DNA of 63,796 nt, counting the filler, from Kipferlia bialata (Eukaryota): NCBI GenBank assembly GCA_003568945.1. It is 4 parts of 4 records of this genome, joined end to end, with 100 filler letters (N's around TTAATTAATTAA, not from the genome) between each part and the next. Parts side by side here need not be neighbours in the genome. Positions count along the whole stretch, not along the records: positions 34,337 to 60,870 come from BDIP01000184.1; 3 more parts are not named here. The stretch is one strand, 5' to 3'. How positions within the stretch are numbered: position 1 is the first letter of the stretch; each line of letters starts with the position of its first letter. The notes beneath the pieces are model-generated. The model saw nothing but the letters and a program-made list of their open reading frames with translations. It was not told where the DNA came from and did no database searches. This document shows, piece after piece, positions 18,789-60,970 of the stretch. The position numbers and the translations under genes were made by a program.

Positions 18789-19666
18789 GCTATGGGCTGG
18801 AGTATGGATGTGGAGAGATAGTGTATTGGACACTAAAGGGATAGTCTACAAGAGACAGAGTACGTGCATAAATGATGTGTGATACCTGTAGTGTCGGGGG
18901 TCTCGCAATAGAGAAAGACAACAGTCGTATCACAACTGGCACACAGGACTTTACAACGGTGTTTACTGCCTTTTCTCCATGGGTCCTAAAAGCGAGTTAT
19001 GAAGAGTATTCAGCTATCATTCTGTCAGCATAGGACAGTCAAAGATACTGGCAAGGGGCTCAAGTAACATTCTCAATAGTTATCCAACTCCGTGGTCATA
19101 ACTTATGGCTCACAAGTTGCTTAAAGCAATAGGTCTCTTCAGGTCTCAGAACTCATATTGCATTCCGTCGGTGTTACGTTGTAGTACCACATAAGTTTTA
19201 CAGTACAACTAGTACTGACTGATACTCTTGATCAGTGAGGAGACTTGATTTGAAATCTGTGGTTAGTGACACTAATTATACGTGGTCAACCTTGTTGACT
19301 CAACCTGACATGATGTTGACACTGTGTTGTCAGTGACAACTTGTCACAACATGATACTATGTTGTGTCAGCATACTTGATACGGGTATCGCTATGTACCC
19401 ATTTCAAATGAGTCATTTGGGTAACACGGCCAGTGTCACATTATACCATGATGGTGAACTTCAATTTCTGTACGTGAACTGCGCACTCTAACTGTGACTG
19501 CTGTTGCTACATCATGTAGCCTGCATGACTTGTAGACAGTAACTTACTGAGTAAGTAATTGTACAGTTGCACCACAGGCATTGACCAGTGGTGGGCTATC
19601 TGCACTCTTGACCAGGGCTGCCACTTTTCAAAATACCGCGTCCAGATCCAGTGGATCAGTGGTGGA

Positions 19667-19766
19667 NNNNNNNNNNNNNNNNNNNNNNNNNNNNNNNNNN
19701 NNNNNNNNNNTTAATTAATTAANNNNNNNNNNNNNNNNNNNNNNNNNNNNNNNNNNNNNNNNNNNN
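19667..19766. other. Artificial contig linker N44-TTAATTAATTAA-N44
   Basis: All-frame stop / PacI-containing 12-mer at 19711-19722, centred in exactly 100 nt. Confidence 0.95.
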
Positions 19767-19819: not shown

Positions 19820-20097
19820 AGGGGATGCATTTCTCAGAGGACATACAATTGTCATTGGCACTGACCGAGTCCTTACATAGACCAGACCCCTAGCTCATTA
19901 CTCTTCCTTCGTTTAGTCAGCTTCCTCTTATCCCTTCCGCTACCACTATGGTAGGCGTCAAATATATATTTGAGATGAGTGAGTCATGGTTTCTATTAGA
20001 CACTGTCTATGGCATGAACACATCGTCCATACATTCAGTCATCCAACAAACTTCCCATCACTCTATTCCATTCACTCTCAAAACATAGACAGTCTGT

Positions 20098-26000: not shown

Positions 26001-26089
26001 TACTTGGTACAGGGGTTCTCGCCACACCCTGACCCACAGAGTGCATACCCCAGCACAGCCAATAGCAGCATCATCATGTTGTACTGCAT
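20098..26089 (-). CDS. Secreted Cys-rich protein with carboxypeptidase-regulatory-like (Cna-B/transthyretin-fold) domains, many small exons
   Basis: First exon MQYNMMMLLLAVLGYALCGSGCGENPC... has a signal peptide (missed by the ORF track). Domains LVGTVTDEGGVGVPGVVVVVGLDEVAVTDEFGNYVAHDLPPG and TTTSNAFGYYSFPSLDTGIYTILAEHP. Last exon DDAAVEARL...DDVFKP*. Confidence 0.7.
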
Positions 26090-34236: not shown

Positions 34237-34336
34237 NNNNNNNNNNNNNNNNNNNNNNNNNNNNNNNNNNNNNNNNNNNNTTAATTAATTAANNNNNNNN
34301 NNNNNNNNNNNNNNNNNNNNNNNNNNNNNNNNNNNN
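34237..34336. other. Artificial contig linker N44-TTAATTAATTAA-N44
   Basis: 12-mer at 34281-34292. Confidence 0.95.
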
Positions 34337-34671
34337 CAAAAGGGGGTGTTCAGGGGTGTTTCCCCCCCCCCCCCCCCTATTTCCCTCTACATATGCCCAA
34401 GCAGATACCTACCCCGTAGTGTATAGTCTATAACGCTTCCTCCATATAAGGATGGGTCTATTCTTATGATGATGGAACGGGGATCATACATTACCCGTCT
34501 CTCTCTCTCCCCTCCCCTCCCCAAACTCCTTCTCTCTCCCTCTCCTTTCTCTCTCCTTTCTCTCCTTCTCTCCTTCTCTCTCTCTCTCTCCCCCTCTCTC
34601 TGTCTTACTCTAGGATCTTGTGCACTATTTAAATATTCATAATCTCACTGCTGCCTCTGTTGCCACATGTA

Positions 34672-34703
<32 letters not shown>

Positions 34704-34820
34704 TACTCTGGGATCTTGTGCACTCTTATAATAGGCATTATCTCACTGCTGCCTCTGGTGCCACCTGTACTCTATCTCTCTCTCTCCCTCCCCCTCTCCC
34801 TCTCTCGTTCTTATCCTTAG

Positions 34821-37800
34821 GACCTTGTTCACTACTACAACCGACACAATCTGACTGCTGCCTCTGGTGCCACATGTACTCTGGAGTGGGATGGTATCAT
34901 CAATGTATTGGAGGGGCTAAACAGGTACTGGTTAATATATTTATATATATAAATCCATACAATTGTAAATACAATTATTACTATTCATATATATATTTTC
35001 TATGTATGGTGCATGTACTTTCGAGTGAGACGGCATCAAATACGTGCTAGATGGGCTGAATAGGTGTGAACGCTGGTTGCTAATCCGAATGCCAAGCCCA
35101 AATACCATCACCTCATTTGTTATATCCCATATCCCACTGATACGTTGATACTATATATATTCAGTTAGAATGTGGTATATTTTTTACTCCAGCGCCAAGC
35201 CCAAGGTGGCTGCCACGCTTGATGGCCACCAGTCAATATTCATTACTCAGCAGTAAGATTCTTTACACTGCTGTTATTCTTGCTAATTCTAGTGCCAAGC
35301 CCAAGGTTGCTGCCACCCTGGATGGCCACCTGCCCCAGATACTACAGCCAGTGGTGTCATGTCCCACCAGACTCAGCCAGAAGAAGAGGTATGCATATAT
35401 ATATGTATATATATATAGTAGTACATATATATGTGTATATACTACAGCCCGTGGTGGCATGTCCCACCAGACTCAGCCAGAAGAAGAGGTATGCATATAC
35501 ATATGTATATATAGTAGTATATATTAGTACATATGTATATACTACAGCCTGTGGTGTCATGTCCCACCAGACTCAGCCAGAAGAAGAGGAATACGTATGT
35601 TTATATATATATAGTATCACTCTTGGTTGGAGGACATGTATATGTGGTGATAACATGCAATATATTGCAGTGTAAAAAGGGGATCCATTCAGTGGTGTCA
35701 TATGTCCAACAAGACTCAGCCAGAAGAAGAGGTAAATTTACAGAGAGAGAGATTGCGGAATATCTGGATAGTATATACTCCTGAGGAAAGACATATATAT
35801 TGACATATATTGCATATGATTGGATCTCACTTGATGTACTGACTTCAGACTGGAACTGGTAGAATGCCTGCTCCAGGAGCTGCCTGTCGACAGAGGCACT
35901 CAAGGTATCTGTATTGTATACATATATATATATATAGAGAGTCAGTATCTCAGTATCTTGATACATACTGACCCAGGTGTGAGTGGTGTGTACACTGTAC
36001 TAATCCGCTATATATTCACACTGTATCAGTATACTCTATATATAGAATATTCCAGTGCCTTTGTTTCATCTTGATACTGACCCAGGTGTGAGTGGTGTGT
36101 ACACTGTGTTGAGCCGGTATCTGCCCCACCCTGCCGTGGCATGTCACCCCCAGCTAGAGGCAGGGGAGATAGTACATGCTATACAGAGGTATATAGAGAG
36201 GAATACAATGTATTATTATAGAATAATTTCAATACTCACCCCCAGCCACATTGGGAGGGTTGACAGACCGAGTATGTATGATGCAGCATGTCACACCCTG
36301 GCCCGAATGGTGCTGCACATGGACCCAGGCGTGTTTGAGGTACAATCTCTTAGTTAATGTATTACGCGATAGGTTTCTTACACGATATGACCGCAGGAGC
36401 ACTGCATGCCTATTTTTGACTTCTGTGACAACCCAGAGGCGCCCCCATTCCATCTGATGAACGCACTATACGTGAGGTATTTGCATTTGGATTGGATTGG
36501 ATATTATTAGATTATATACAGGTATTGTATATGGTGTCATTTCACCTCATGAATGCCGCATTCGTAAGCCGAGTGAGTATACAGTAGATGGTATTTGATT
36601 ATGTATATGTGTGGTTGGTGTTTTACTCACGCACAGGGCCCGTGCGACTGGCAACCTCCCCCTCCTCACCTTACTGTCCACTACCAACATGCTCACAGAG
36701 GCAGTGGGGGTGGTGTCCAACGCAGTCGATGACGAGGCAGTGTCACAGGTACATATATCGTGTAGTTTTGTGTCAGGTACTCTGGAAAATCTGGATAATC
36801 GTGTAGTTTACCGTCGATGATGAGGCAGTGTCACAGGTACATATATATAGTGCAGTTTAGTAGTATTCAACGTGGTGGGTTTCTGAATTTGAGTAGATTC
36901 AACTTCTTGTCGTACAATCGTGTAGTTTGACTCCAGGCCACTACCTTCCTCTCCCTCGTTGCCCTTGGTGAGGTTGGCTCTGAGGAGGAGGGGGCAGAGA
37001 TCTCAGTGCACCCCCCGCCCATAGAGATGTGTCACCTGTTGGCCAGGTATTTGAGATTAATCCCTCTCAATATATATATGATATATATATGATATGGCAT
37101 TGCTCATATCTCCTTGTATCATGTATGTAATATACTGTGCACCCTCCGCCCATAGAGATGTGCCACCTGTTAGCCAGGTGAGGACAACTCACGCTGCAAG
37201 GATTAGTTCAATTTATGTATAGTATCGTAGTATACTGATATACTCACTCTTACCCCAGGAAGAGTGCCAGAGGCAGGGAGAGGGTTGGGGTTGTACATGG
37301 GACGACATGCGCTGTGTCACTGGCAAGGTGGGACATATATCATTGCCTCTCCATTTTATATTCTCTCAATGGTATTCCATTACTGAGAATTCCCTCCCTG
37401 TATAATTAGTATATAATCGTGATGTCTGGTTCTCTGAAGCCGGGACATGTTTCTATTTTCCTGTTTTAACTCCAGGTTGATCTCCAAGGTTGACCACACT
37501 GCCAGTGTCACTTCTACACTATGTGAGGTGTTCCCAGACATAAGGGGTGGGCAGACATCTTCTCTAGGTTAGTATCGTGTAGATTATATCCTGATAATTG
37601 AGCTTCTGTTATTCTTACGCCCAGCGCTGGAGTGCCTGATTCAACTGCTCTACACGCTGACACCCACACCGCGTAGTATTGCTACCGGCACATCAGAGGC
37701 TGTTACACTGGCCCTTGAGACCGTACCTCTAGTGCTTGAGAGACACACTGTACAGGTACACACTCGTATACTACGCGATATATCCTATCTTGATACGTCT

Positions 37801-40800
37801 GTACCTAATTTCAGGCATGCAGGCTCCTCTCTGCTTCTGCTAGGGCTATGGTATCCATGGTATCTACCAAGACAGAGAGGGACGATGCTGGAGAGAGAGA
37901 TACTCTACTCTCTCCGTTGCACAAGGCACTATCTGCTGTACTAGGAGTCATTGTAGTAGCTGCTAGTGAGGAGAGAGGGAAGGGCCACAACGGCATGGAC
38001 ACGGTACCAAGTGCCGCCCTATATGCATGTGGTGGCAGTGTGGCCTATGTCCTTGGGTCTCTCTCCCTCCTGGGGTGCAGGGATAGTGATGTGTGGGAGG
38101 TGCTGAGGGGTGTGGGTGGTATGGTATTCCCTCTCCCAGACTGCAGTGCCAAGAAGGAGGACGGTGAGGAGGAGAGAGATAGGGATAGGGAGAGAGGCAG
38201 TGCCACAGATGAGTGTGCTGTCTCAACACCTGTGGCCAAGGTACACCATCTCATATATGTAATGTATATCCTATATATTTATCCTCTATGTGCTCATTAT
38301 CAGGTCTTGGCCATAGTTGCCGTGTCCCACCACCTGGCCCTGTCCCTGATAGCACCCAGGGCTGCAGCTGACATACCATCTTACAAGGTATGAGTATATA
38401 CTGATATATCATCAGGTATATACTTGGTTAGTATATGTACACTCTAGCCCTGTCTCTGATAGCACCCAGGGCAGCAGCTGACTTACCATGTTACAAGGCA
38501 AGTGTATGGGTATACATATATGGTATATGAACAACCCACATCGATCCACTGTTTATGTATCAAAATACAAGTCCATGTACATACATATATGTATTCTATT
38601 GATTTTTGTATGCAAGTATAGTATATACATATACATACACAATATATATCTACTATACCCTCTGACGTCCAGGGTCTGGATGCTGCTACAGTCAAGTTCG
38701 CTTCTGAGGCACCTGAACTGCCAGGTATGTATGAAATATATATATGTTTGTATGAAGAGAGGGGTGATGATCTATCAATAGTCTGTCAGTTATACATTCC
38801 CTATCCACTCATATCCACTCTCTCTTCTGTCTAATCTCTCTTACTCAACTGTCGATATGAACCTTCTTTGATACCAAAAGGCCATAGATATGCCCTGCTC
38901 TACTCTGCTGTTGATCAATATCCATCTCTTCTACCTCATATATACCATGTAATCTCTGTAATAATCCGCTTTCTTCTGACTTTAGGCGGGCTTAGATATG
39001 CCCTTCTGTGCTCTGCCTCTGGCATGAGATTGAGAGACACTCACACCTTCAAGGAGGCACTCTCTCCTGTACTGTCTGTACTTGGGGTACTATCAGGCCT
39101 GGTACACACGACACTATCAAGCCAGGTATTGTATCTGGCAGACAGTTTTACCACATGGACTAGTCCGTATAGTTGATACATGTATATACCTGTATAAGCA
39201 TCTTTTTTCCTGACTCCAGCCCATCGGCAACGTCAATGTGTGCAAGAGTGCCCAGACTGTCAGAAGGTATCACAATCATAATCGATTATTGTAGAATATA
39301 TCTTCAGGTTTCATTGTTAGTATCAGTATTGGTATCAGTATTGGTATCAGTAGAGTCTGATACTTAGGTCCTTCGGAGCCGGTCACACCACATGTGACGC
39401 CCTCAACACTGTCCTCTTGGGAGGCGGTGCAGACATGTCGCCATGGACAGGTAGTGTAGTGTATACATATACATAATATAGAGAGAAAGATGGTGAGCTT
39501 TGTATTGTCTACCTTTACATATTTGGAAGAGAAGTATATACATGTCTCCATGGACTAGTAAATGAGTATGTATATATTTATGTTTAGACATGGATATATA
39601 TTGAACGTCTTACGAGTAGGTTACTTCCCTGTGGCTGCCCTGTCCGTCCTCTCCACCCACTCCACTGTGACAGACAGGGTGGAGGACAGACAGAGTGCAT
39701 GGGGGGAGACAGCTGTGATGGAGGTGAGTACATATACATATCTATTTACCCTATATACACTATTATATTGCATATAATGTTGTGTTATATAGGGTGGAGG
39801 ACAGACAGAGTGCATGGGGGGAGACCGCTGTTATGGAAGTGAGTACATATAAGTACATCTATATATACATCTCTCTACTCTATAGATATATACAATGTGT
39901 ATAGTGTGGTGACAGACAGGGTGGAGGACAGACAGAGTGTGTGGGGGAAGACGGCTGTTTTGGAGGTAATCCTATACATATATACTACTCTTCAGTTAGT
40001 CTCTCTAGTTACATTCAAGTATCTCTCTATATACCCATATATGTGAATAGGAGTGTGTATGTCTATGTGTGTCTCTATCCTCTCATCCCCAGTACCACCT
40101 GAGGAGCATCGCCCCCACTGTGACTGCACCCCTATCCCTTAATCTACACGATATGCATCGCGTAGAGTCACTCTGCGATGACCCTTTATGTCCTGTACCA
40201 TGTCCGGTGGAGTTCTACAATGCAGCACCCTCTAATGGCACCCTACCTGTTGGTGTCACTGCCCTCACTGCATCTCAGTCCATATCGCTATTGGATGTAC
40301 TCGACACTATCAAGGAGTCTTATAACAAGGTATATATAGTATGCAACAAGTATACTGTGTGTGTTTATTGTATGTTCGTCCATATCGCTGTTGGATGTGC
40401 TGGATACAGTCAAGGAGTCTTACAGTCAGGTAACGATATCACTTGTCCAATACATGTATCCATACTGAAGATATAGATAGACTTGTCATAATACCAACCA
40501 TCAGACGACTGACGCTGCCATTAGGATATCACTGGCCCTAGTCCTCTCCCATGCCTCTGCTGTCTATGCACCTCTGAAAGATAGTGCAGTGGCAGAGATG
40601 ACATCCATCTTAGTAGCCCCATCTATGGTAGGGCATTTGTGTAAGCATATACATATAGACTGACTATGTAATCTATATATGCACCCTTGAAGGATAGTGC
40701 AGTGGCAGAGATGGTCTCTATCTTGGTGGCACCCTCAATATATTATTAGTATAGAGTAACATACAGTAGTTTACTGCCATTGATCCCTCCAGGACCAGAG

Positions 40801-43800
40801 AATGCAAGACGTCGAGTATATGCTACTATGATGTATATATGTTTATACATACATGGTATGTATGGTATACAAATAATACTAACCCCTTCAGGACCAGAGG
40901 ATGCAGGACGCCAAGTATGAGAGAGAGAGAGTATCATCAACCAGACGTAGCAGAAGGGGTCACGATGAGGACGAGAACATGTTCCTCACCGCTGCTGACA
41001 TGTCCTGTCCTGCCCTGGTTGGGCTGATGCCTGCACTCTGCCGCTTGTCACACAAGGTATGGCACTCTTTTCAGCATGCTGAACTGTTTTATAGGTAGGT
41101 ACTCTTTCTGTATTGTCTCAATTGGAGAGCTCATATTTCTGGTCACACATATGGTGATCTATATTATGAATACACTGCCACTAACCCCAGGCATCCCTCT
41201 CTGCCCCTCCCCCTGACGATGGCTACGAGGGTGATCAGCCTCTGACATGGAGCCACCTGGCACTGATGGCACTACTCGAAGCAAGGTATATGCTATTCTA
41301 CGCGATGATGTGTATTCCATGTAGGCTAACCTTCAGGGATGACTGGCAAAAGGACCGACGTGACCTCAGACAGTCCCAGACACTTTCGGTCAACACTCTG
41401 CCATATGTGCCAGAGAGTCGCGTAGCCAGACTTGCAAAGTATGACTGAACACATATCATAAGTCTCTCATAATTATTACGCGATTACTGACATTAGGGTG
41501 TGCTCCAAGCAGCAGAGGATAGCCCTATTTCCCACTGACATGGCGCTACTTACCTGCCCTGTCTGGCTGAGGTATGTAGTTCATGAAGAGTTACTCATTA
41601 GAATTATTTTACTATGCATAATATCCTATGGAACACTATCTTTGGGTTGGGTCCTACCACCAGGTACTCCCTGCCTGACCCTGTTGAGAACTCTGACACT
41701 CCCTATGTGACTGTACCTGTTGTACTGGGACATATAGTGGAGCCAGTGCAGACCAAGGTACTCAAGGATGACCAAAGGCTGACAGGGCCTGTGCTGCAAG
41801 GTATGAAGGGAAAACATATATCCTGTCTTCGAGGGCGACAGGGCCCTGGTTGCCCTGATATACTCTACTGTATATAGTATGTACATACTCACACCAGGTT
41901 GTGTTACCCGTATCATGACCCATGCCCTCCAAGACACCCTGGCTGCATGTGTGGCACATGCGAAGCAGAAGGTACTATGTGGTATTTGTTGTTACTTTTG
42001 GAAGATACATGTCTATATATATAGGTAGTTGTGGTGTTCCATGTCCTGTAAGACACCCTTGCTGTATGTGTGGCACATGCTTAGCAGAAGGTATTGAATA
42101 TATGCAGATCATACATATTATTGATGAACATTCATACTTTCAAAGTATGTATGTAGGCCGTCTATCTCTAACACTAGGCAACCAATGGGGCTACTCCCAC
42201 TGAGGATCCTGACACCCCTGCTCGCAAGTCCCAGTCTCGGAGGGTGAGGAGCAGACACAACAGTCCAGGTGACGACATATTAGAAATGTATTTGCACATA
42301 GATCATCTGCCGTCAGACTCTCTCCCCCTCTCTATATAGATATTTATATATATATTGTTTAAACATATGTTTGAATACACCTAACCACAGGCACGAACCT
42401 CCTAGACGTCGAGGACGAGAGAGAGAGAGAGCAGCGCAGGAGGGATGCCATACCCACTGTGGAGCACTGGACACACCAGAAGTGCAGAGATTTAACGCAC
42501 AACATGCTATTCGTGGTGTTCCCTGAGGTATGTTCCATAGTATACTGTATATGTATGCCCATCAGAAATGCAGGACTATAACGCTATACCAGTTTGTTGT
42601 CTTCCCGGAGGTATATACTGAAAATGTTTTATCCATATTGGGTTCTTTACCTACAGACTGCACAGAAGTATTGTATGACTTTTCTTACGCGATTACTGAC
42701 CCCTTTAGGAGGAGGAGCAGACCATGAATGACATGCTGGACGGAGAGGAGTCTCGGTCGTCAGATGAGTCTCCACTGGTCAAGCGCAGGATCAAGAGAGG
42801 TCGTCAGGACAAGAACCACATCACGTGCTGCGGAACTATGCGATACCAGGTATATTGGGGTTAACTGGGAAGATTAGTGACATTCTGTCTATTTCCTGTC
42901 TTCCCTGATATATGTACTTGCCATTCTGCTTAATTATAGTTTCTATTCCTATTAATGATTTCAATATAGTTTCATTCCTATTAGTGATTCTTTACTCCCA
43001 GGTTGCCAGGTCCATTCTATTCCTCTTGGGTGACATTGAGAACGCATTCTTAAAGAGGTGAAATGCATTGTATTCTCAAATTTTATCTCTTTACTTTGTA
43101 CACTACTATATATTCAGTTGCAAACATTGCTGTTGCCTCACTCCAGGCCCAGGGATGGTCCTGGGACTTTGACTCTTCCAGTACATAAACAACTATCTTA
43201 ATATCGTTCTATAATAAATAGTAGACTACTGATAGTAGTGTATATGGTTTCTCACAACAGATCCAGGGATGGCCTGGGTCTTGGCCTGCTGACATCATCA
43301 TTGGACCCAGCTGTGAGGATGGGAGGTATATCTATAAGTATGAAATAATATATATTATTAGTATAGTGATGACAGTGAGTGTTGGACTCAGTCTTCACGG
43401 CGGTAGATATTTGTCTCAATATCGGTTTCTTTCCTATGTGTCTCATCACTTGTCATATTTGCTCTTCGAAAAAGGCTAAATCACGGTCGTCAACGTATAT
43501 CTCCCTAGATCTCACCCTTTAGGCGTCTGCGCTCTTCTGGAGTATGCCTCAAAGAGACCCACTGATGAGTTTGTACAGGAGTGCATCGGCAAGATGTGCT
43601 CTGTGGCCACGTCAGTACTCCTACCTAAGGTTTGTATATATTATATATTAATATATATGTCTGCATGCACAATCTGTCCTCCTTCCTAAGGTTTGTATAC
43701 TCCACGTTCTCTATAGATTTACAGTGAACATAATATTTTGTGAAAGTGACTAGTGTTCCCATACTTATCCCAGGTCTTCAAGGTGGATAGGAGGGATGGC

Positions 43801-46800
43801 ACAAAGACTGAGGTCCCCGAGGAGTTGGATGCCGTGACTGTGTCTGTGGTGTGGCTCTTGAGGATGAGTCTACCGGTGTTGACAGGTATTTTATCTATCT
43901 CAACCTTCCATGGTGACATTCTAGTCTTCGGCGGTATTCACTGAATAGTATTCACTGAATCTGACAGTGTTATACTAACCCCATCAGGTGGTGTGGCTTC
44001 CATTGTCCGGTCTGCTGTTCTCAAGGCCACCACATCCAGAGACAGGGACAGAGTGCTAAAGTAAGTACTATAATGGTATTCAGCATTTGCTGAGAATGTG
44101 CTGAACCCTGTCACTTGGTAACTCTGCTATTGGCCTTCAGTTAAAGATTGCAAATTGCATATCTGACCCCAAGATATGACTCTGTCAGAGCCATGTTAGC
44201 TGCTAGTGAGAATGACAATGAAGGAGAGAGAGATACAGGCCTAGCCAGACTGGTACTACCAGCAGCCACAGCCATGGTGGAGAGTGGGCATAGCCTATAT
44301 AGGTGTGTAGTATGGTATACATATTATATATATATGTATATATAGTGTATGGAGTGTTACAGCCATAGCCATGGTGGAGAGTGGGCATTCATTGTATCGG
44401 TGAGTAATATGATATGTTAAGAGAATTTGTATTTATATCTTTATGGAGCTTCTCCCCGCGTGTCACTGCCATGGTTGAGAGTATACACAGTCTGTATAGG
44501 TTAGCCATAGTACTATGTTCACACACTGTCTATATATATTAGAGGTGTTGTATGACTTTCTTAACCCCCAGGGTCCACTCCGACTCCCAAGGCCTCCCCC
44601 CTGACCAGGATGTGTGGGGCATGGTAGACACAGATACACACGTAGGACAGGTGAGGGATGAATTTACACTGTAGATTTATACTGAATGGTGAAGCAATAC
44701 CTTATCTCCCCCCTGACCAGGATGTGTGGGGTATGGTGGATGGCAACACACACGTGGGACAGGTGGGAGATGTAATATGACTATAGACTTATACTATAGT
44801 ATAGTGTAGTTGTATCGTATCTCCCCCCTGGCCAGGATGTTTTGGGCATGGTAGACACAGACACACACGTGGGACAGGTCATATGCCGTCTATATGTAGT
44901 ACTTTACAGCACGCACTCTTCATGTAATATCCAACGTGCAGGTCTTCCGCATCGCTGTGTCCTGTCTCTCCAGACAGCAGCAGCCCATGCCGGCCATACA
45001 GGCATACAGGTATGATACCAGTCTATATATTTTAGCTATATTCATCAATATATACACCTACAATGGTTATTGTTCTGCTTCCTGCTATTTAACCATCAGG
45101 AAGAGTGTGTTGCGCAAGGCCAGAGACGCTGCCAGAGCATCAAGGTATGGTCAATAAGCGATGCTTTATACAATCTGTGACGGTCAATTCATTTTCCTTC
45201 TGTTTCATTTCTTATCAAATAGGAAGGCCACCGCTGCCCCTGAGACTGGTGTCAAGAGACCCTCTAGGGGCAGACCTACGAGAAGGGCATCAACTAGAGG
45301 AAGTAGGGCCAAGAGGCGACCCACCCAGTCTGACCCATACATTGACACACTGAGCAAGGGACTGGGCCTGGCATTTGAGGTGTGTATGAGTATTCTGAGT
45401 ACATGTATTTGATGGTTGTGGTGATATTTAAGTTCTTAGTCACACCCAGGCTCAGTCCCAGGATGTTGATGAAGATGACAGTCACGAGGAGTCAGAGGCA
45501 GAGTCAGAGGGAGAGGGGGAGGGAGAGAGTGGTGTTGCAGGATGCACAGCTGGCAGTGTGTGCGTGGGTGTCCTGCTTGCTGCATGTGCAGTCTCCATGC
45601 TAGGTGTGTCTGATATATCATCCATAAACCATGAATCATTCACTTTCTCTCTCTTTGGTAGAGATACTATTTGGTCGACTGACGTGAAATGGGTTATTGA
45701 AATGGGTATTTTAATGGTTGATTCTTCCTTCTGTCTCTTACCCTAGGCATCCCAGACTATGTGCTGCAGTACTTCCCAGCAGAGAAGGACGCCCCTGAGG
45801 TACGTGGACCTGTAACATCTAAGTACTCACAGTTTGATACACTCACACTATGCTTTCCTCTAAGCTTGACACTGTATCCTTGCCCGAGACTCTAGAGTTT
45901 TCATGTACTCAATTACGATACTACGCATTACGTACTCACTCTAGGTTGACACTGTCACCTTGCCCAAGACTATAGAGGGCATGGATAGCATCTGCCAACA
46001 GATGCAGCCATCGGAGTTATATGCATTCACCAACCAGCTTAAGGTTTGTGTGTCCACTGTAGTGCTACTTGGTACATTCTACCTTTTCATATATACTGGA
46101 TACAAATACTATGTCATTCTGACTCGAGATCCTGCTCCATGAGGCAGAGTCCTCCCCAGATTCACCTCTTGCACAGCTGTGTGCTATAGGTAGCGCCATC
46201 CACTCACTAGGACTGTCAAGGTAGGCATGGTGGTATCTCTGTCCATATGAGAGTATTACCCACAAGTACAGGTGTTTGCCCATATACATGAATATCTTCC
46301 CTCCATCCCAATGATTGGTGGATGTTTCTCACTTCCAGGTGGCTGTATCCCAATGGCACATGGTCCGTTGTGGAGGCAGTGTCCACCCTGGTACAGTCAC
46401 AGTATATGGAGGGCGCCACCATATCCACACATACCAACACCCCACTAGACACAATGTCGGAAAGTGTTCTAACCATTGATGGTGTCTATCAGTACGACCT
46501 GGATGAGCAAGAGGGAGAAGAGAGAGAGAACGCCAGTGCCAAGCCTCCGTCGAGGTCACTTACGGCAGTCATTTGTAGTCTATTGACTGACGTTCATACA
46601 GCTATAGTGGATCACGAGTCACAGGCAGAGAGAGAGAGACTGGCCAAGGCCGCAGAGGAGGCAGACGTGGTAGAGATCATTCCATCTAGTGGTGCCTCGC
46701 CTGAGGATGATAACACTCCTGGCATCCCATCCTTCACAGCTGCCAACAGTGTTGCATGCCTACTAGATGCATTGAGCGTGTACAGGGATAGGGTGGGTAC

Positions 46801-49800
46801 ACCTTGTCAGCTTCTGATGCAGGGTGCTGCTAGGATACTCCAGACACCCACTGGTATGAGAGTGGGTGCATGTGTAGGAGAGGTATCAGCTGCATTCACT
46901 GGCGTCACCTTGGATGAGAGCACTGTAGACCCTGAGACAGCTATGGCCAAGTATGAGGCCTGTCTATCTACTCACAGAGACTCGTGTGTGATATTCCACC
47001 ACCTATCAGCACAGTACGGCATAGCTAGGGGAGAGGGGGTGCTACGCTGCCTATCAGCGAGGATCACTAGAGGGGACTTTTTCAAGGACTTAGACGCTGA
47101 GACGTGTGTGCCCTTACTCGCTGGCCTATCACACGTTCTCAATGGTGTATCCAGGGGAAGTGTGATAGAGAGAGAGTTGGTAGGGAGTATGACTGATGCT
47201 CTCTCCCTCATTGACGCACATGGTGGCCACCATACAGATGCGCTGTCTCTCTCTCTTCCTCACCCCTTGAGCGGTGTGCAGAGAGTGACCTTCAACACAT
47301 CAGAGTACCCGGAGAGTAGTGACACTCTGAAGAGGTACGAGATTTGTAGTATACTATTATTGTCAATATACATATTGCTCATGTTGGTATAGTCTTCTAG
47401 TACTAACCACCAGATACATGCGGTACTCGGATGCCGCTGATGACGCCGCAGTGGTCTGCAACGAGCTCATAGAGGTACCACAATACAAAATTTTAATGTT
47501 TAAGTGTTTCTTTCGCTACATGATTCACTAATTCCAGGCTAACAGGCTCTGCGGTGATGATGGGGAGGCAGATGCCCACCTTGCATTGACCGATACTCTC
47601 CTGGCAGAGGTGTGTATACTTAGACAAATACCATGTAATTCCTGTGAAATGGTTTATGATTCAGTACACCTCTCACTGTTGTCACATTGAACACCTTACT
47701 CTTCTAACTCAGAACTCCGTCCTTAGCCGTCTCACACCCGCCACTAGCAGCATATGCTCTCTCTCCACCTTGGTAGAGAGTATGTGCCGCCAATCTGGCT
47801 CTGAGGGTGTAGAGGCTGCTAAGGCCGTGATCCGTGTCATCGTTCCTGCCTCTGAGCTCACCGGATACATCGGTGTACCTACCACACCGGCTACCACCCC
47901 TCCTGCTTCTATTGAGAGTGATGGTGTTAGTGATGCTGTCTCGGTTTATAACACCTGGCTAAGTGGTGTGTGTGCTATTCTTAGAGAGAGAGCCGGTCTT
48001 GGTTGGCTGGCCTCCCTGGCCCCTTTCTCCCCCTATGCTGCTGAGTGGCTAGTCAAGTATGGCATATTCAGACTGACGTACCCCCTGTCATGCTGTGTGT
48101 TGAAGGTATAGTCATAGTGCTATTATTGATACTATTGATAAGAGTAACTGCATAGGATTGAATTCTCATCGTGACAACATCGGCAACAATATAATAATGA
48201 ACATTATATTGACATCTATATGATATATTGACTTACCCCTAGGGCACAGACAGGACCGAGGTCCTTGGCCAGATATTCAGTGTTGTGACTGGTGACTCAG
48301 CTGGTGACAACTCCCTTGTGGTACCTGTCCTGGCTGATGCCTTGGTGTATGTGGGACATATGATGTTAACGGCTAAGGTATGAATATAGAGTGCTATACT
48401 ATATATATACACTCTCTACACAATTGGTATTGTACATCTCCTGGCCGATGCCCTAGTCTATGTGGGACATATGATGCTCACGGCCAAGGCTTGTGTATAT
48501 GTTGTGTATATGCAGTATAGAGTAATAGTGTTTATATACATAGCATATAGTACTTATCTTGGTATACATGCTGCTCACTGCCTATATCAAAGTTGTATTT
48601 CTGTTATTGATGTCTATTAGAGCGATCATTGCTCACCGCAGACCTTTATCCACCGAGGCCTCAACGCATACATGAACGGGCAGCCAAACGATCCATCCAA
48701 GGTATGACACTTACTCTAATAGCGATAGTACCTGCATTATGACTCTAATGGATATTAGAGTTGCAATTGTCAGTACTTGTCTCTTACCCTCAGGACATTG
48801 GCCGCATCATCACCAACTACTCTCTCAACCTGTACCTCCCCTTCGGTGTCCCCTTGTCCATCTCCACCGCTGTGGCATCAGCCGCAATAGAGTCTGGATA
48901 CAACCACGTAGCAGGATGGATCACAGAGAGCCTCGGGTACCACATTGAGAGGGTTAGTACTATCGCGTTGTATTCGGTATCTAAATAGTTTATCGTGTAG
49001 AATAAGGCCCTTCCTGATACCAGATTGAGTGGCAGAGACAGGCTGTCTCTGGGTCGCCTACCATTAAGGGCGCACTTGTAGATGATGTGTTGGTCGACGC
49101 CCTTCAGGTGAGTATGTGTATGGTCTTACACTATGCTAGAGTACCAGGTCTTACTCGATGGGACTTCTGGATCTCTTCTAATGCACCAGGCTATCAACCG
49201 TCAGCACCAACTGGGAGCACGGGTGGTTAGGCAGCTAGTCAAGGTATCTGGTGTAGTGTATGCATGCGGGTATTTCCGTAGTATTCTCTCTCTGATCTAT
49301 ATGTATTAGTATGTGTCTGTGTTAATGTATGTAAACAAACCACCAGGTCATGCACCAGATGCCCGCTGCCTCCGACCCCTCGTTAGTCAGTGCAGACAAC
49401 CCCACTGCAGCTGATATTGCTGCTCTTACCTCCAGGGCACTGCTGCACACATCGCCAGAGGTATTCTATATCTATATATATATCACCCTTCTCGCCTCCT
49501 GTATGTGTTTGGTCAAGAACTGCAATGTCCTATGTATATAATCGTGTGTCTCACATTCAGGATTGTGTTTCAGATTCACCGTCACGGACACAATCCGCCA
49601 CTGGTGGATATCTCGCTAGATTCGACACTGATGACGGAGTCGAGCCAGTGCAGGAGCGGCTGAGAGCGCTTACCTACCAGGTGTATCATACACATCTCTT
49701 TGTTTTGAGGAATAGTGAACATCTATTGTTCCGACATGTAGAGAGACTCGCAATTGTATTACCAACCTTCTATATGAAAGTCCAGTCACATATTCTCTCG

Positions 49801-52800
49801 CTGACTCCCAGTCCGAGCTCTCCATGGCGCTTGGCAAGCACGCTGATGCCCTAGAGACATGGGATCAGGCTCTCACTCTCTCTCTCTCCCACGGTGGAGA
49901 GACAAGCTCCCAGCCACTCTCTCTTCCCTCTCTCACACCCACCATATCCATGAGTACTGACAGAGGAGAGAGTGTGAGGGAGAGAGATACCTCAGCAGAG
50001 GCCGGTCTCAGGCAGTGTCTGCTCTACAGTGGAAACAGCTACCTCCACCAGAGGCTAGGCCGTGACATGCAAGCGAGTAGAGACGCCGTGTACGTCCCAG
50101 ACTGGCGTTTCACCCATGACCCTCAGACAACGCCTCCATTCCCCACAACTGCCAATACAGCCTTCACAGCTATAGTGGGTGCTACAGTGTCTAGAGATGC
50201 CAATCGGGCACTAGCCGCGCTGCATAGCGGTAGGTCGGCTGTACTAGAGGCCATTACTCACACTAAGGGAGGTAGTGATGTGGGTATGGCTGGTGTCTCC
50301 TCTACCTCCTGGGCGGGTGTGTTTAGGGAATGTACAGCAGAAGCTGGGTCTAAGAGTGCCGATCTGCAGGGTATGGGGCTAAGGTCAGCACCCACACAGG
50401 AGCTGAGGCTCAGTACTGGGTGTGTGCTTTCAGTATTAGAGGGAGAGGGAGAGAGTGATACCGATACTGGTGCTGTCAGTGCCCTGAGGTCTATTGGTCA
50501 GAGGGCCAAGGAGACATACGGGAAGCTAGGTATGGGATTCATACAACGACAAATACTATCTTTGTAGTGTACATAAATGTGTGTGAGAGAGTAACTATTG
50601 CTATAATGCTCTCACCCCAGGCATGTCACAGCTGGGCACTAGGGTACTCAGCCAGTGTGGGTTACTGTACCACTTACTCAACGGTGGGTCCGTGGGAACT
50701 GGTGATAAGGGGAGGAGTGGTGAGAGGGAGGCTCTGAGTGCCTCTCTGTCACTTACAGAGACCCCTAGGCAGGCACTGTCCTTAGAGGCAGCTAAAGGTG
50801 GATATAAGTATGGCTCTATTTCACAACAATTTATTTTGTATTCATGTGTTGATTCTTCCTGCAGAGTTACTATTCTGGCAAGAATATATGTTAATCACTA
50901 ACTCTAGCTTCGTACTCTGGCTACCTAGAGATATCCGACAAGCTGCGGAACCAGGACTATATCAAGCAGGCTGAGGATCTAGGTAAGGAGTCTACGTGAG
51001 TAGGTTGGTTCCACACAGCGTTAGAGTGTTGATTCGTATTCCTAGGTATTATAGTGTATTTGACCCTCAGGCAACCTCGACAACAGACCCTCTGCTGCGA
51101 GAGAGAGAGACTTTGGAAAGAAGAGACAGGTCTCGGAAGTGGAGGTAAGAAGCATTACTCTCTCTCTGATTTCTTACTCCTCTGGTCCTGTATATATCGT
51201 ACAAAGATATGTATTACATTCTTGAAGGTGACAGTTATCTATACAAACGAGACAGAAGCCTTCTTCGTCTTCTTGCTATCCAGTGTACTTCTTCTATATG
51301 TCCTCTAAATACTACTAACCCTAGCGCTTCCTGAACCAGACCGAGGCCCTGATCGAGAAGCGCAACTCTTTCCTCATAGATTCCCTCACTGCCTATCTGC
51401 AGCACTTTGCAAAGGGAGATATTTCAGGTATGATCTATTCACTTGGATCTTTCAACGATAGTACCTGGTATTTACGTTCTCCTTGTCTAGAAAACACCTT
51501 GGTATACTGTCATTGAAATAGTATATCTCTCTAACAGTGAGGCTCCGACTCTCTGTCTGTGTTCCGTATCATCAGACCCCTACTTGATGTCTGTGGGTCT
51601 GGCAAGACAGACAAGAGTGCTAGCACTGCAACATCACCTGGCAAGGTACAGACATATCAATACAATTTCTCTAGTTCTCTCATGAACCCTGTGTTTATGA
51701 TATTTCTACACGATGGCACTCACGTGTTGATTTGCTATTTCTACACGATATGGACTCACGCGTAGTATGGCAGTGTCCAGAAGGACAAGGAGGTACTCAT
51801 CCTGCACAAGATGAGAAGGGTCACTAGGGACATGCTGATACACGGCATAGACCCACCAACAGCCAGGTTTGTCATATTGTCTGAGAACATCTCAATTACT
51901 CAAAGTGTCTTCTATATGAATATCATGCATATGTATTATTAGTATGAGTACGTTGCACTCTAACACCCAGCCAGGTAATCAAGCTACTGTCCGAGCACCT
52001 ACTCTCCAGAGATGGATCCCCACCACTGGTATCTAGTCACCACCTGCTACCCGCTGCAGTCATCCTGGTCACTAGGTATATATCGTGTAGTAAAGTAAAT
52101 TGTAGTGGCTTTTGTCATCCTAGCCACTGGGTATATCGTGTAGTATATCTGCATTATATGATAATGTTCACATCGTGTAGTTGGATGACTTTGTTTCTTA
52201 TGCTAGGCTGGCCTCGCAGATCCCAGCAAGTGCTCCACCTACACCGGCACCACCGGCTAGGTATGGAACAGAATGATTTGTTGTATCACTATGTACTGAA
52301 TACAGTTGGACATACATACTATATCACATACTCTCCCTATATATTTGCTGCTACTATACTTAGATTCCACTATATATATATTTATATATATATGTGCATA
52401 TTGTTACTACCAGGATGAGCTAGATGACATAGGCTGGGAGTCAATCACTACGATGGCACCATATCTCCATAATGATTGAGTGCTGCTACACATATATACT
52501 ATAATACATATATATTTATATATGTATTGATAGCAGGGATGAACTAGACGACATGGGCTGGGAGTCTATCACCACCATGGCACCAGTCTCATACAGAGGC
52601 AGGGAGAGGGAGAGAGAGAGGGAGAGAGAGAGGAAGAGGTCAAGGGAGAGAGTGCCATCCAGAAGTCCTAGGGAGTCATCTCTAGCAGCTGCCAGAGAAC
52701 TACTCAGGTACATATCCTGTACATATACTATATATACCTGTATAGAAATACTAAGGTACATGGGTACAAATTTTGTAGATACATGGAAATGAACTTTATA

Positions 52801-55800
52801 TATGCAGCTAATGTCCAGGAACGTTGTGCTTAGGATGGCCGTCGACCACCCCTTCCACGTAGTCCCACACCTGATAGCAATCGGAGGCTGTGAGGTACAT
52901 TCTGTGTGCAACCAATACCTATTAATAATCAACGTGTTCAAGATGTTAGCAAAATGTATATCATCATATCTATATATACGACATGACTCCTCTATCGCGT
53001 AACATGCAGGATGTACTGACTGATCTGTTGGGACCAGTTGGCCAAGAGATGACAGTGGATCACTCAGTGCTGGTGGCAGCCGTTCAGGGTTCGTCTCAAT
53101 TGGGTCCATTATCTAGGACTAATTATCTACTTTCTGTATCAATATCTAACTATCAGGTTGCCAGGCAGCCGTAGAGTTCTATCCTGAGGTCTTTAGACTA
53201 GGTAAGAGGAAGATATTTTTACCATAGCCGCTTCTACCAAGAATAGCGGGATCTTTTCCGTTATTGCAGAATATATATATTCATTTACAATTGTTAGTGA
53301 ATAGCGACACATAGCGAATGTATTGTTACTTACCCCAGCCACCCCCTCCAATTGTGTAATTCTATACTCTATTATACTCTCCTCAAATATGTCGCATAAC
53401 ACAAAATTAGTATTGTTACTTACCCCAGCCACCCCCTCCAAGAATGACAGTCACGTGTTCATTACATACATGTATATACACATGGTAGACTACAAGTATA
53501 TGTCGCGTCATTCTATGTATAGATAGATTACTAACCACAGCCACGCCCTCCAAGAATGACAGGCACCTATCTACACTCTTATCATACAACCCTACATAGT
53601 ATGACAACATCTCTAAGACCCAATTGTTTAGTATAGTGTGTTACTCCGTTCTAACCCAGCCACCCCCTCCAAGAATGACAGGCACCTGTCTACACGGGCC
53701 AAGAACAAGCTCAAGACACACGTCAAGACATTCAACATGGCTGTGAGGTATATATGTCTCTCTCTCTCACACACACACTCTCTAGGGGTTTCGTTACTGG
53801 ATCTCACTCCTTAGGGGCACCCGGTCTAGGACCACTGGCAGACGCAGTGGCCATCTGATAGCAGTCCCATCCTACACGGTGAGTATATGTCTAAACATAT
53901 ATTGTATACCCAAATGCTATGTGAATACTCTTACCCTCAGGTCCCTGCGAGACATGCAATCTACAAGGGCGGGAAGGTTCAGACACTTATGCAGTACAGG
54001 GTACGTACACCGCGTGAGTTATTGATATTATGTAGTAGATACTGGCATCGCGTTGTATTTCGGTAACCCCAGGATACCCCCCTTATCCGCGGAATCTCAG
54101 AGAATATTGCTGCTCTGGGTGGTGTGAATGGTAGTAAGAAGGTACAAGGTTATTGTAAAGTATAATGAATATGTGTTTAAACAGCATAAATATAGTCAGA
54201 TATTATTACATGTATAAATGTATATGCATGTATTTACTGTGATACTTCCTTACCCCTAGGTCTCTGTGCATGACACCCACGGCATGGTGCACGAGGAGTG
54301 TCTCAAGATGGGTGGGTATTGATGTATATATATATATATGTATGCGTATGCGTGTGTGTGTGTGTACCACATTATTGTAGTACATGAGTTGTATGTGTGT
54401 ATCAATTTCTGCCCACGAGGAGTGCCTCAAGATTGGTGGGCATGGGAATATGGATAGTTATACACTTCATCAATATTGATAGAGAACTAAGGCGATGATT
54501 AGATTGAAATGAACGGATTGTACCATCAATATACACATGCATCATTCTGTCATGATATACTGACCATCAGGCAAAGACGACATGCTCCAGACCAACCTCG
54601 TCATGTCCTTCTTCGACTGTGCCAATGTCATTCTCCAGAACCAGAGGGGGTTCAGTGGCACACCAGTCAGAACATACAAGGTAATACTCGATTAGTGACA
54701 AGTTACTCGTTGCCATACTCTATTAGTGGATATAGAACCAGACGGGGTTAAGTGGAACACCAGTAAGGACATACAAGGTATTACTCGATTAATGACAAGC
54801 CACTCCATACTCTTCTTTTCTCGCTTCGTGACATGCAGGTTCACCCGTTCTCCCAGAGCTCTGCCTCTTCGTGTGGAGTGCTGCAGATGGTGCCTACGTG
54901 CATATCATACCACCAGTGGCTGGAGTCAGGTGTGTTGGAGTATATACCATGAAAATAGCAATATATGGGTATATAGAATGCATTTCACAGAGTATATGTA
55001 TATATATAGTACGAATATTTATAAGTGAATGTATTGAAATAGTATAGTGCCAACGTGCTTATCGTAAAACCAGTGGCTGGAGTCAGGTATCTGGTGTGAC
55101 GCACAAAGTCACAAGTGAATCATATAACCGTCACATATATGTATATTGTAGTAAGTACATATATGCAGTAATGGGTATATTGAATATATCAGAGAAGGGA
55201 ATTATTGCATTGAAGTGTTTGTCCGCTTACCCCCAGGTGACCCCTGGAATGACGGTGTCCCTGCCTGTTCCAGATACATGCTGCCAGGTATTTTTTGTAT
55301 ATAAATGTATATATATACATAGAAGGTGGATACGTACATTGGACAAGGGTTTTATCGATACATGGAGTTCTCTGTGCCTATAGGCCTTCCTTTTCTCCCT
55401 CCTTATCTCTCCTTCTTGCGCTTTGCTGTATAGAGTCATCTGCTGACTCTTTGCCCATGCCCTCTGGGGTCTTTCTCTCCCTCTGACACCCTCTCTCTCT
55501 CCATATGGTATATGTACTTACATACTTATACAAGGCTGTATAGAGTCCTCTGCCGACTTTGCCCATGCCCTGAAGGGTCTGCAGATGCAGGGACACCAGG
55601 ACAGGGTAAGTGTATTGCTATAGACNNNNNNNNNNNNNNNNNNNNNNNNNNNNNNNNNNNNNNNNNNNNNNNNNNNNNNNNNNNNNNNNNNNNNNNNNNN
55701 NNNNNNNNNNNNNNNNNNNNNNNNNAAATATATGTATATTCATAGAATAGTATATATACACATATATACATGTATGGCAACATCCTGATCGACCAGACAA

Positions 55801-57005
55801 GTGGGCAGGTATATTCATTCATATATACATTCATAGTATAATATATATCCATTTTGATATATTACTATGAATAGGATATATATGATAACTTTCTGATCGA
55901 CCAGACAAGTGGACAGGTAATATGAACACCTGATGTATACCCAAACTCCCTCAAAATTTCAAATATTACTCGTTCCATATATTTCTCCACGATACTCACC
56001 CTAGGTTGTGCACATTGACCTAGAGTATGTGTTCAATGACTCTAACTCCCTCACAATATCATATAATTACGCGGTCCTCCTATTTTTACACGATACTGAC
56101 CTCAGGTTGTCCACATTGACCTTGAGTATGTGTTCAATGACTCTGACTCCTTGACCATCCCTGAGAAGTGCCCGGTCAGACTGACCCAGAACGTGGTGGA
56201 TGGGTTAGGGCCGGCAGGTACGGGTATAGAGTGGCAGACTCTCTGGGTGGACTTTAATGTATTACTTTGAGCAACTGAATACGTATCATGATAGGTTTCT
56301 TTCGTGTTTGTTGTAATGTGCCTCTACTCATTACAGGACTCAATGGTCTGTTTAGATCGACTGCCAACAGTGCACTGGCAACACTAAGGTACGATAGTTA
56401 CTGTTTGGATTCTATGTACTAAGGGCCTGTGGGTCTCTATACATACACTTTTATGTATATGTGTGTATATACTATTATATACTATTATTCTAATGTATAT
56501 ATGGGATATGACTCATTGTGTTCTTACCCCCAGGGAGCAGCGTGACATGTTCCTTGTTCCTGTCTCTGTGGTGGCAGAGTCACCTTCATTCAGGTACAGG
56601 ATACTCTATATTAGTATATGATTACATATAGGTATCGGTATAATCCGATAGCTATTTGTAGATTGATGGAAAGAATAGTATGGGATATAGATGTAATATG
56701 TATATAATATATTCGTGTGCATACACTAACCCCAGATGGGGTGAGAAGGCTGACACCTCTACCCTCGGAGCTAGGGCAGTCCAGGGAGTAGCCCACAAGC
56801 TAGGTACCTTTAACGCGTAGATTGTCACTCTATCGATTAGAACCACAAGTATGTGTATGCCATCGTGTAGAATCCTAACCCTCCAGCTGGTATTGTGGAT
56901 GGTAGGCACCGCTCTGTGGATGAGCAGATGCAGCACGTGGTGCAGGAGAGTACTGACCTGGACAACCTGGGCAGCATGTACAGTGGCTGGAGGGCGTGGC
57001 TGTAG
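34821..57005 (+). CDS. ATM: ATM/Tel1-like PIKK serine/threonine kinase (helical N-terminus, FAT, PI3K-like kinase, FATC), dozens of exons, 5'-partial
   Basis: VLRMAVDHPFHVVPHLIAI; GGVNGSKK; CLKMGKDDMLQTNLVM; VRTYKVHPFSQSS..GVL; VVHIDLEYVF...IPEKCPVRLTQNVVDGLGPAGLNGLFR; FATC SVDEQMQHVVQESTDLDNLGSMYSGWRAWL* (TAG 57003-57005). These motifs are closer to ATM than ATR. That the exons at 34.8-50 kb belong to the same gene is inferred from strand, splice phase and expected size. Confidence 0.8.
35191..35731 (+). repeat. Cluster of partial exon duplications around the exon at 35293-35388
   Basis: The exon 5' part is copied at 35191. The 3' part (gtggtgtcatgtcccaccagactcagccagaagaagagg) recurs near 35440, 35540 and 35690. 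Confidence 0.9.
53320..53695 (+). repeat. Four tandem copies of an acceptor plus exon start (cagccaccccctcca...)
   Basis: Copies near 53325, 53416, 53530 and 53652. Only the last continues as an open exon. Confidence 0.9.
55626..55725. other. Assembly gap (100 N) inside the kinase domain
   Basis: Run of N. The expected catalytic-loop exon(s) are absent from the sequenced flanks. Confidence 0.97.
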
Positions 57006-57514
57006 AATAATTATATTCAATGACCTGTTAGGGGGGGTATTTCGCAAGTTGAATAGATAGATCCTAGGCAGCATGTACAGTGGCTGGAGGGCGTGGCTCT
57101 AGATTATAGTTATAGTATCGTGCCAACACTTGCATTTAGGGAGTGATTGCTATGTTGAATAGATGGCTATACTAAACAGTTTACAAGGTAAAGTGATAGA
57201 CCATAGTGTGGATGAAACAATAGCACTCTATTGGAGTACCCTTACAATGAAAGTTTCATTGAAACATCTGTCTAGGCTCAAGAGTCTTGATTCAGTATTG
57301 GTTTAGTATCGATTTAGTATAGATTACTACCTCTGATCATCAGCGTTGACCTGAGAGGGTTCGGTATGTCATAAGTACTCTACATTGAGTCAAAAGCAGC
57401 TAATTCGAACCCTACGAGCACAAGTGATGCCGCCACAATATGTAAGGCAGAACATATCCCAGTCAACATCATCTATTTGACAGTGTAATAGGTAAGTACT
57501 ATGATATATCCCCT

Positions 57515-60870: not shown

Positions 60871-60970
60871 NNNNNNNNNNNNNNNNNNNNNNNNNNNNNN
60901 NNNNNNNNNNNNNNTTAATTAATTAANNNNNNNNNNNNNNNNNNNNNNNNNNNNNNNNNNNNNNNNNNNN
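60871..60970. other. Artificial contig linker N44-TTAATTAATTAA-N44
   Basis: 12-mer at 60915-60926. Confidence 0.95.

Follow-up and report, generated by a model that had tools for sequence, protein, structure and literature searches.

Echoes of exon ends in introns of the Kipferlia bialata ATM gene may be old exon ends displaced by repair from a diverged allele

Twenty-six of the 80 introns of the ATM kinase gene of Kipferlia bialata contain echoes, near-tandem copies of the adjoining exon end or exon start that differ from the exon mostly at silent sites. The gene lies in a window of 63,796 nucleotides (nt) from assembly GCA_003568945.1, the whole stretch of DNA analysed here, in which four contigs are joined by artificial linkers (12 nt of AT-only sequence between two runs of 44 Ns) at 19667–19766, 34237–34336 and 60871–60970; the contig piece that holds ATM is 26,534 nt long. 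From the pattern of differences between exon and echo, we lean towards reading each echo as an old working exon end that was displaced by break repair from a strongly diverged allele.

A query of 331 amino acids (aa) from a single exon returned one protein at 100% identity, GIQ80514.1, which NCBI names as ATM of Kipferlia bialata. The protein has PI3_PI4_kinase (E = 2.4e-15) and FATC (E = 1.2e-07) domains (Pfam), and the NCBI name together with the PI3/PI4-kinase and FATC domains identifies the gene as probable ATM rather than ATR. Our 81-exon model translates letter for letter to GIQ80514.1 if the body-side copy is used at every echo; two steps at which the exon solver hopped to an echo were reset to the exon-side copy.

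34821–57005, plus strand: ATM kinase gene of Kipferlia bialata, 5'-partial, with 81 exons and 80 GT-AG introns, 26 of which contain echoes.

A diagonal scan of the window yielded 66 near-tandem pairs, including several from single arrays and a few of low complexity, versus none in each of two shuffles. With a threshold calibrated on 1896 mismatched exon–intron pairs, the ATM census comprised 35 exon-end or exon-start echoes in the 26 introns, at donors and acceptors alike. For 30 anchored echoes at 23 boundaries, the tandem unit spans the exon–intron boundary. Two further echoes span a stop codon, where there is no splice site, and splicing is therefore not required for echo formation. No echoes of at least 9 nt with periods of 6–44 nt were found at ATM boundaries. 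Intron length in ATM follows 105.5 nt plus 111.5 nt per echo (r = 0.90), and an echo is present in 25 of the 29 introns of at least 158 nt versus 1 of the 51 introns of at most 152 nt. The part of the intron beyond the outermost echo has a median length of 99 nt versus 102 nt for normal introns (P = 0.85), and the spacer is shorter, at 62 nt. The resulting layout is an exon end, GT and a short spacer, followed by the echo and a full-size intron, and it is mirrored at acceptors.

The differences between exon and echo have the character of differences between coding sequences. Counted without the stop-codon echoes and those aligned only with gaps, the 30 anchored ATM echoes show 86 silent and 46 replacement differences from their exons (pS = 0.316 and pN = 0.051; 0.41 and 0.052 when corrected), distributed 25:16:91 over the three codon positions, with a silent divergence (dS) of about 0.4. 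Simulations of a neutral-echo model, with unconstrained decay of the echo and an exon open to silent changes only, led us to expect 74–91 replacements, and the lowest count in 6 × 400 runs was 58. When each of the 23 boundaries was represented by a single echo and detection was simulated too, the silent share was 0.644 in ATM versus means of 0.35–0.41 and a maximum of 0.55 in the simulations (5 × 120 runs); this share was reached only by an approximately sixfold faster mutation of the exon or by two coding copies with an omega of 0.1–0.2. The replacements were conservative, with a BLOSUM62 score above 0 in 20 of 36 versus about 31% expected (P = 0.002). Third-position divergence was uniform across the 23 echoes (chi2 = 22.6, df = 22) and showed no correlation with positions 1 and 2 (rho = 0.06); three models with a spread of ages gave P values of at most 0.027, and a model in which both copies are coding and share one distance fits.

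On the intron side, the copies mostly part company. Deep intron-side similarity was seen in 7 of 43 echoes and in only 1 of the 8 near-identical ones, which share 5–13 intron bases and then nothing. A whole unit with its intron part repeated at high identity occurs in a few arrays, whose inner spacers are alike, and not in general. For most echoes the spacer does not repeat the intron DNA that lies beyond the echo, an arrangement that plain tandem duplication does not give. Searches for the 35 spacers as copies of nearby unique DNA in the window returned matches to simple repeats or expected neighbours only. Because the silent excess, the conservative replacements, the uniform divergence and the mostly unrelated flanking intron DNA coincide, it is most likely that the two copies had already diverged, each as a working allele, when they were joined.

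Splice signals of the echoes bear traces of both use and decay. Echo donors keep GT in 14 of 18 cases (P = 0.015 against an expected share of 0.50), although 47% of positions +3 to +8 are different, and they score lower than working donors (P = 0.02). At echo acceptors, CTNAY is found in 6 of 12, versus 7.5% of random intron windows. Three stop codons interrupt echoes, and 8 of 30 echoes have non-canonical dinucleotides, 2 of them GC. Replacement differences with GC in the exon and AT in the echo outnumber the opposite kind (26 versus 11, P = 0.02), and silent differences have no direction; a skew limited to replacement differences points to later decay of the echo. The two GC dinucleotides follow the echoes at 38498 and 48489. 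The former has a strong donor context and may once have been a working GC donor; 48489 lies one base off a donor start that three ATM introns use.

Three other processes were considered and rejected. An RNA-template polarity, with the downstream copy always GC-richer at silent sites, was not found (37 versus 28, P = 0.32). Selection acting on the products of error-prone copying, and concerted evolution of the tandem copies, were each rejected by argument only, as neither yields a pN/pS far below 0.5.

The echo at 48.3 kb, with which the initial annotation was concerned, illustrates the layout in detail:

48243–48377, plus strand: exon in the transcript (contig 10 of run X2); its last 57 nt (48321–48377) are copy 1, which ends in AAG followed by GT.
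48378–48431, plus strand: spacer of 54 nt, with a working GT donor and AT-rich intron-like DNA.
48432–48488, plus strand: echo (copy 2) of 57 nt, whose core at 48441–48488 encodes the same 16 aa; it lacks an acceptor and is followed by GC.
48489–48641, plus strand: residual intron of 153 nt, GC...AG, about full intron size.
48642–48701, plus strand: next exon, 60 nt.

Re-reading of 48330–48377 and 48441–48488 confirmed that both encode the same 16 residues, LADALVYVGHMMLTAK, as the initial annotation had stated. These 48-nt copies differ at 7 nt (48335, 48342, 48344, 48347, 48366, 48368 and 48374) in five codons, all synonymous. Its count of seven silent differences out of seven is true of this core and hinges on where the edge is drawn: the match really covers 57 nt (48321–48377 versus 48432–48488, 48/57 identical, period 111 nt), and the extra inner 9 nt add two amino-acid changes, Pro/His and Val/Leu. 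The 57-nt match alone has a P value of 0.045–0.13 under the neutral-echo model, and the silent bias of this echo taken alone is weak. Thus the protein-level signature that had been implied for the intronic copy holds across the ATM echo set, not from this one echo. The description of copy 2 as having no obvious acceptor and being followed by GC, where copy 1 is followed by GT, was also correct: the 49 nt that precede the 48-nt copy 2 contain no AG, and the only AGs of the spacer are at 48388 and 48390. Spacer DNA is unrelated to the DNA after the echo (intron-side similarity score −4, the background level), and read-through meets a TGA at the second codon of the spacer. The residual intron would be the intron of the old allele.

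The two copies stand in genuine, contiguous DNA. A single contig from DNA run X1 spans 44000–52501 with 0 other letters and 0 gaps at a depth of 458; X1 is possibly the window's own source, which would make this a re-assembly and not an independent sample, and contigs hide heterozygosity. The longest identical run between the copies, at 18 nt, is shorter than the 31-letter index words, which makes collapse or a jump of the assembly path unlikely. The initial annotation had allowed that the copies might be alternative alleles of one site; with a single X1 contig running through both, and identical runs of at most 18 nt, this was not borne out.

Transcript data point to use of the exon-side copy. 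Contig 10 of X2, a run that is RNA by guess only and whose contigs lose rare forms, tracks copy 1 over 48241–48375 with 0 other letters, and the 60 unlisted letters between its two listed pieces equal the length of the next exon (60 nt). Depth in the bin of the echo was 3.2, compared with 3.21 expected for the exon only and 4.70 with the echo covered. RNA use was examined at this echo only. The codon variants of copy 2, which the annotation proposed to look for in mRNA, do not occur in contig 10, and the depth is that of the exon alone. Normal splicing thus uses the exon-side site, both in the X2 contig at this site and in the annotated protein, which equals the exon-side model. No splice pair brings the echo in frame, and splicing from the far donor would run into a TGA. 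The only GT/AG pair 111 nt apart at this site combines the real donor with the last AG of the echo and yields an unchanged mRNA; an in-register AG–GT inside the repeat, which would allow one period to be spliced out, is not present. We rejected the echo as a mutually exclusive exon: it has no acceptor of its own and no AG near its start, it is followed by GC, X2 leaves it uncovered and it is not in the transcript contig.

Displacement may have come about as follows, by what is the simplest single event that would join the two copies. A hybrid or an outcross would have brought into one cell two ATM haplotypes separated by about 0.4 silent changes per site, their exons matching and their introns not. 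After a break in an exon, one end would have invaded the other haplotype and copied the remainder of the exon plus some 30–110 nt of intron, with no homology for the return. Alternative end-joining to the other broken end would then have put the incoming exon end and splice site to work, and shifted the resident exon end with its whole intron about 110 nt outward. The echo, without a function of its own, would slowly decay (loss of GT or AG, stop codons, GC-to-AT changes), and some units would expand by unequal exchange. The hint in the initial annotation at another haplotype thus comes near the present conclusion, but as history, with the echo descending from the exon end of another allele. 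The layout and the divergence would fit such a one-sided invasion scar, and so would the published repair kit, with no Ku or DNA-PKcs and with Dmc1 in place of Rad51A: according to passages of the respective papers, metamonads lack Ku70/80 and DNA-PKcs, and Fornicata have lost Rad51A and retain two Dmc1 paralogs (PMC8516963); mismatched joints are stabilised by Dmc1 (PMC6719624); break repair in yeast can switch template to a 72%-identical donor (PMC12891019); and k-mer data indicated diploidy in K. bialata (PMC5874029).

Several points weigh against displacement by break repair. The donor allele was not found: protein searches gave no second ATM, JGI metagenomes gave none either (13 pattern matches, no relative), and no diverged pieces were listed at 88% likeness over 44000–55600. 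For alleles, a silent distance of 0.4 is very large and exceeds reported within-species values, and a hybrid or cryptic species must therefore be assumed. The boundary-spanning layout is not itself evidence, as random duplication followed by selection would yield it (random 110-nt duplications would span exactly one boundary in 63.5% of cases and lie within an intron in only 3.6%). Which copy is incoming and which is resident is an assumed direction, and arrays with a common inner edge point to unit expansion, not to independent breaks. Several of the tests above share the same 30 echoes, the exponential age model was our choice, and RNA support consists of a single contig of a presumed-RNA run. 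Finally, the 14 echoes outside ATM show 11.5 silent versus 14.5 replacement differences (P = 0.16–0.81 under the neutral model), in a test that used ab initio frames, had few differences and followed removal by hand of echo-like micro-exons (1, 4, 3, 0 and 1 per gene); the neutral model with one-sided selection fails for ATM and fits the other genes.

Short tandem duplications may instead have come first, with a later misaligned crossover or conversion with a diverged allele replacing the echo and the intron beyond it with the working exon end and intron of that allele, a turnover of the type seen in the amphioxus repeats known as mirages, in a very polymorphic population. The echo would then have the same allelic origin, and only the first step would be different. 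Such a history accounts no less well for the silent bias, for a residual intron of full size and for intron sides that are unrelated; it also accords with arrays that have common inner edges and similar inner spacers, with the layout that random 110-nt duplications produce, and with amphioxus mirages, which change length between haplotypes according to passages of PMC3087553. However, it predicts more replacements in the inner part of the echo, and no gradient was observed (outer part 36 silent and 20 replacement, inner part 43 and 21; P = 0.85, with low power), and its starting material, fresh duplications of a whole period, is rare (the intron side matches in 1 of 8 near-identical echoes); we hold it to be unlikely. 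We find it rather improbable that the exon end and a few intron bases were duplicated within one molecule, with AT-rich filler between, neutral decay of the echo and selection on the exon only. Near-identical echoes that share only their 5–13 intron bases, spacers that match simple repeats only, the 14 non-ATM echoes, and decay in the form of stop codons, lost splice sites and AT drift all fit this course; yet the ATM silent share exceeds all 600 simulated values, the replacements are conservative and divergence varies too little for echoes of many different ages. A wider claim, which covers displacement, the duplication-first course and the second-copy course treated below, is that a working exon end in a diverged copy gave rise to the echo; this claim is likely.

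Protein-like constraint on both copies and the many intact echo splice sites would also be expected if the echo stayed coding through occasional use, by rare alternative splicing or by repeat collapse at the DNA level, through which the echo would become the exon end. This is very unlikely: no acceptor lies ahead of the echo at 48.3 kb and no GT of copy 1 is in frame with the AG at 48455–48456, the far donor leads to the TGA, the X2 depth leaves no room for an echo contig, and three stop codons lie in echoes. No DNA joint between the copies was among the 15 of 51 joints listed, and frequent collapse would probably erase the echo before a dS of 0.4 accumulates. The partner might have been a second ATM copy, a homeolog or paralog that is still in the genome and was repeatedly used as repair template. 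Uniform divergence suggests a single partner and the genome is reported as diploid, but neither diverged pieces nor other letters were listed over 44000–55600 at 88% likeness (the expected exon identity of about 89% is near this cut), and no related proteins were found at 30–1787 or 581–2000 aa, with 2000–5700 aa outside the search. A search of representative proteins matched P0001 (= GIQ80514.1) only, and its 50% cluster could hide another; overall we consider a resident second copy highly improbable. An assembly artefact that set two alleles in tandem would suit an organism reported as diploid and copies that resemble alleles, but a single X1 contig passes through both copies with no difference, at most 18 bases in a row are identical and the transcript contig skips the echo, which leaves this explanation a negligible chance.

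The other echoes of ATM, and one in a predicted gene on another contig, are as follows:

34614–34773, plus strand: two exon-start echoes ahead of the first exon present, with a common inner end.
35194–35230, plus strand: exon-start echo that has an AG; 4 silent differences, no replacement.
35439–35731, plus strand: exon-end array of three echoes, the outermost with an unrelated intron side.
37137–37177, plus strand: exon-end echo with an unrelated intron side; GT retained; 3 silent differences, no replacement.
38440–38497, plus strand: exon-end echo, followed by GC.
39781–39965, plus strand: two exon-end echoes.
40369–40429, plus strand: exon-end echo, 7 silent and 3 replacement differences.
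40673–40819, plus strand: exon-start and exon-end echoes that share an intron, the latter with 10 silent and 3 replacement differences.
42039–42090, plus strand: decayed exon-end echo with two stop codons.
44360–44499, plus strand: two exon-end echoes.
44706–44877, plus strand: two exon-end echoes with a common inner edge (exon position 44594).
52413–52461, plus strand: exon-start echo, 5 silent and 1 replacement differences, AG lost.
53339–53576, plus strand: exon-start array of three echoes, each with an AG acceptor.
54734–54777, plus strand: exon-end echo with an alignable intron side.
55044–55086, plus strand: exon-end echo with a stop codon.
56005–56057, plus strand: exon-start echo in the kinase domain, with an alignable intron side.
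57063–57102, plus strand: echo of the last ATM codons and the stop codon, with no splice site.
20003–20037, minus strand: echo that covers the final codons and stop codon of a gene predicted ab initio on another contig.

A rule that the outermost copy is the oldest holds in the arrays at 35.1, 35.4, 39.8, 44.4 and 53.5 kb and fails at 44.7 and 34.6 kb, and is too weak to be used. Three further sites in ATM deserve mention. An exon-like stretch of 102 nt at 41337–41438, predicted ab initio, preserves the frame and has a branch site, AG and GT; it is absent from the annotated ATM protein and is a possible missed or alternative exon. A weak exon-start echo at 43149–43174 neighbours the exon at 43261–43325, for which the annotated ATM and the ab initio model use different frames; the annotation may be wrong at this point. 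In the kinase region, a pair of echoes (55770–55808 and 55878–55916) lies beside a 100-N gap that cuts the exon, and was left uncounted.

In ab initio models of five other genes of the window, anchored echoes were found in 3/22, 6/22, 3/27, 0/23 and 1/4 introns. Echo density differs strongly between loci: a predicted large gene at 4100–12800 (minus strand) with 23 short introns (median 78 nt) has 0 anchored echoes, versus 22/80 introns with one in ATM when the method is kept identical (Fisher P = 0.003). A protein search with a 639-aa open reading frame of this gene found no relative. The peptide of a predicted gene at 14557–18790 (plus strand) resembles splicing factor PRP6; at the end of two echo spacers in this gene lies a hexamer repeat of the GATACT type, which is also present in other introns and is possibly filler from repeat synthesis. 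The gene for a predicted secreted cysteine-rich protein at 20100–26078 (minus strand) has 6 anchored echoes, several of which are identical in the exon part and unrelated past 5–11 intron bases. Some five decaying copies of one exon end occupy a single long predicted intron at 30660–31085 (minus strand).

If echoes are indeed displaced exon ends, one genome would reveal recombination of a free-living Giardia relative with a strongly diverged lineage, evidence of sex or hybridisation that is legible without population samples. Boundary-spanning repeats would gain a testable origin, and echoes would account for intron length in ATM. A tentative extension is that hybridisation has left a fossil record in the introns of K. 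bialata: repair between lineages about 0.4 dS apart would routinely swap exon ends and drive the old ones into introns in steps of 110 nt. Were this so, the upper half of intron lengths would be determined by this process, intron interiors would be replaced wholesale, pieces of the lost haplotype would be preserved in introns, and the mirages of animals in hyper-polymorphic species would gain their missing mechanism. With about 125,000 introns reported for K. bialata, a genome-wide test is feasible at once. Echoes also mislead gene finders, as the ab initio model made several of them into false micro-exons.

No reports of ATM-type echoes in K. bialata were found in the literature, among the titles and abstract openings listed. 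Among known processes, one-sided invasion, a gene conversion that is completed by end-joining, was reportedly described by Belmaaza and Chartrand in 1994. Together with template switching in yeast, it shares with the proposed origin a homologous start, a non-homologous end, a short copied tract and tolerance of a diverged template, but these processes are known from engineered breaks; we found no report that interprets dense natural scarring of exon boundaries as one-sided invasion. Tandem exon-like copies with conserved coding are likewise a feature of mutually exclusive exons and of intron gain by AG–GT duplication (the Rogers model, cited in the passages of PMC3087553), whereas the echo at 48.3 kb lacks one splice site, has no in-register AG–GT and is absent from the transcript contig. 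In the 37-bp variable number tandem repeat in intron 7 of human F7, the downstream donor copies are silent, as here, and the most upstream donor is used; this is, however, a single near-identical minisatellite, with no sign of diverged-allele origin in the passages of PMC1557585. The closest parallel in layout is offered by the amphioxus mirages (Adh3, troponin C, the globins BflGb6 and BflGb9, and PGBD5), described in passages of PMC3087553 and PMC3902484 as boundary-spanning tandem duplications whose mechanism PMC3087553 terms unclear. They have in common with ATM echoes a unit over the 5' or 3' exon boundary, a period of 60–160 nt, retained cryptic AG or GT and undisturbed splicing. By contrast, ATM echoes occur in a third of the introns of one gene, mostly with one extra copy, and include echoes of stop codons, in a protist reported to lack non-homologous end-joining and Rad51A; the exon part repeats and the intron part usually does not; and exon and echo differ like two working alleles, the passages on mirages being without silent and replacement counts. 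The echo thus behaves as a mirage in being tolerated and skipped, but does not repeat the whole unit, and is a variant of this class and not a member of it.

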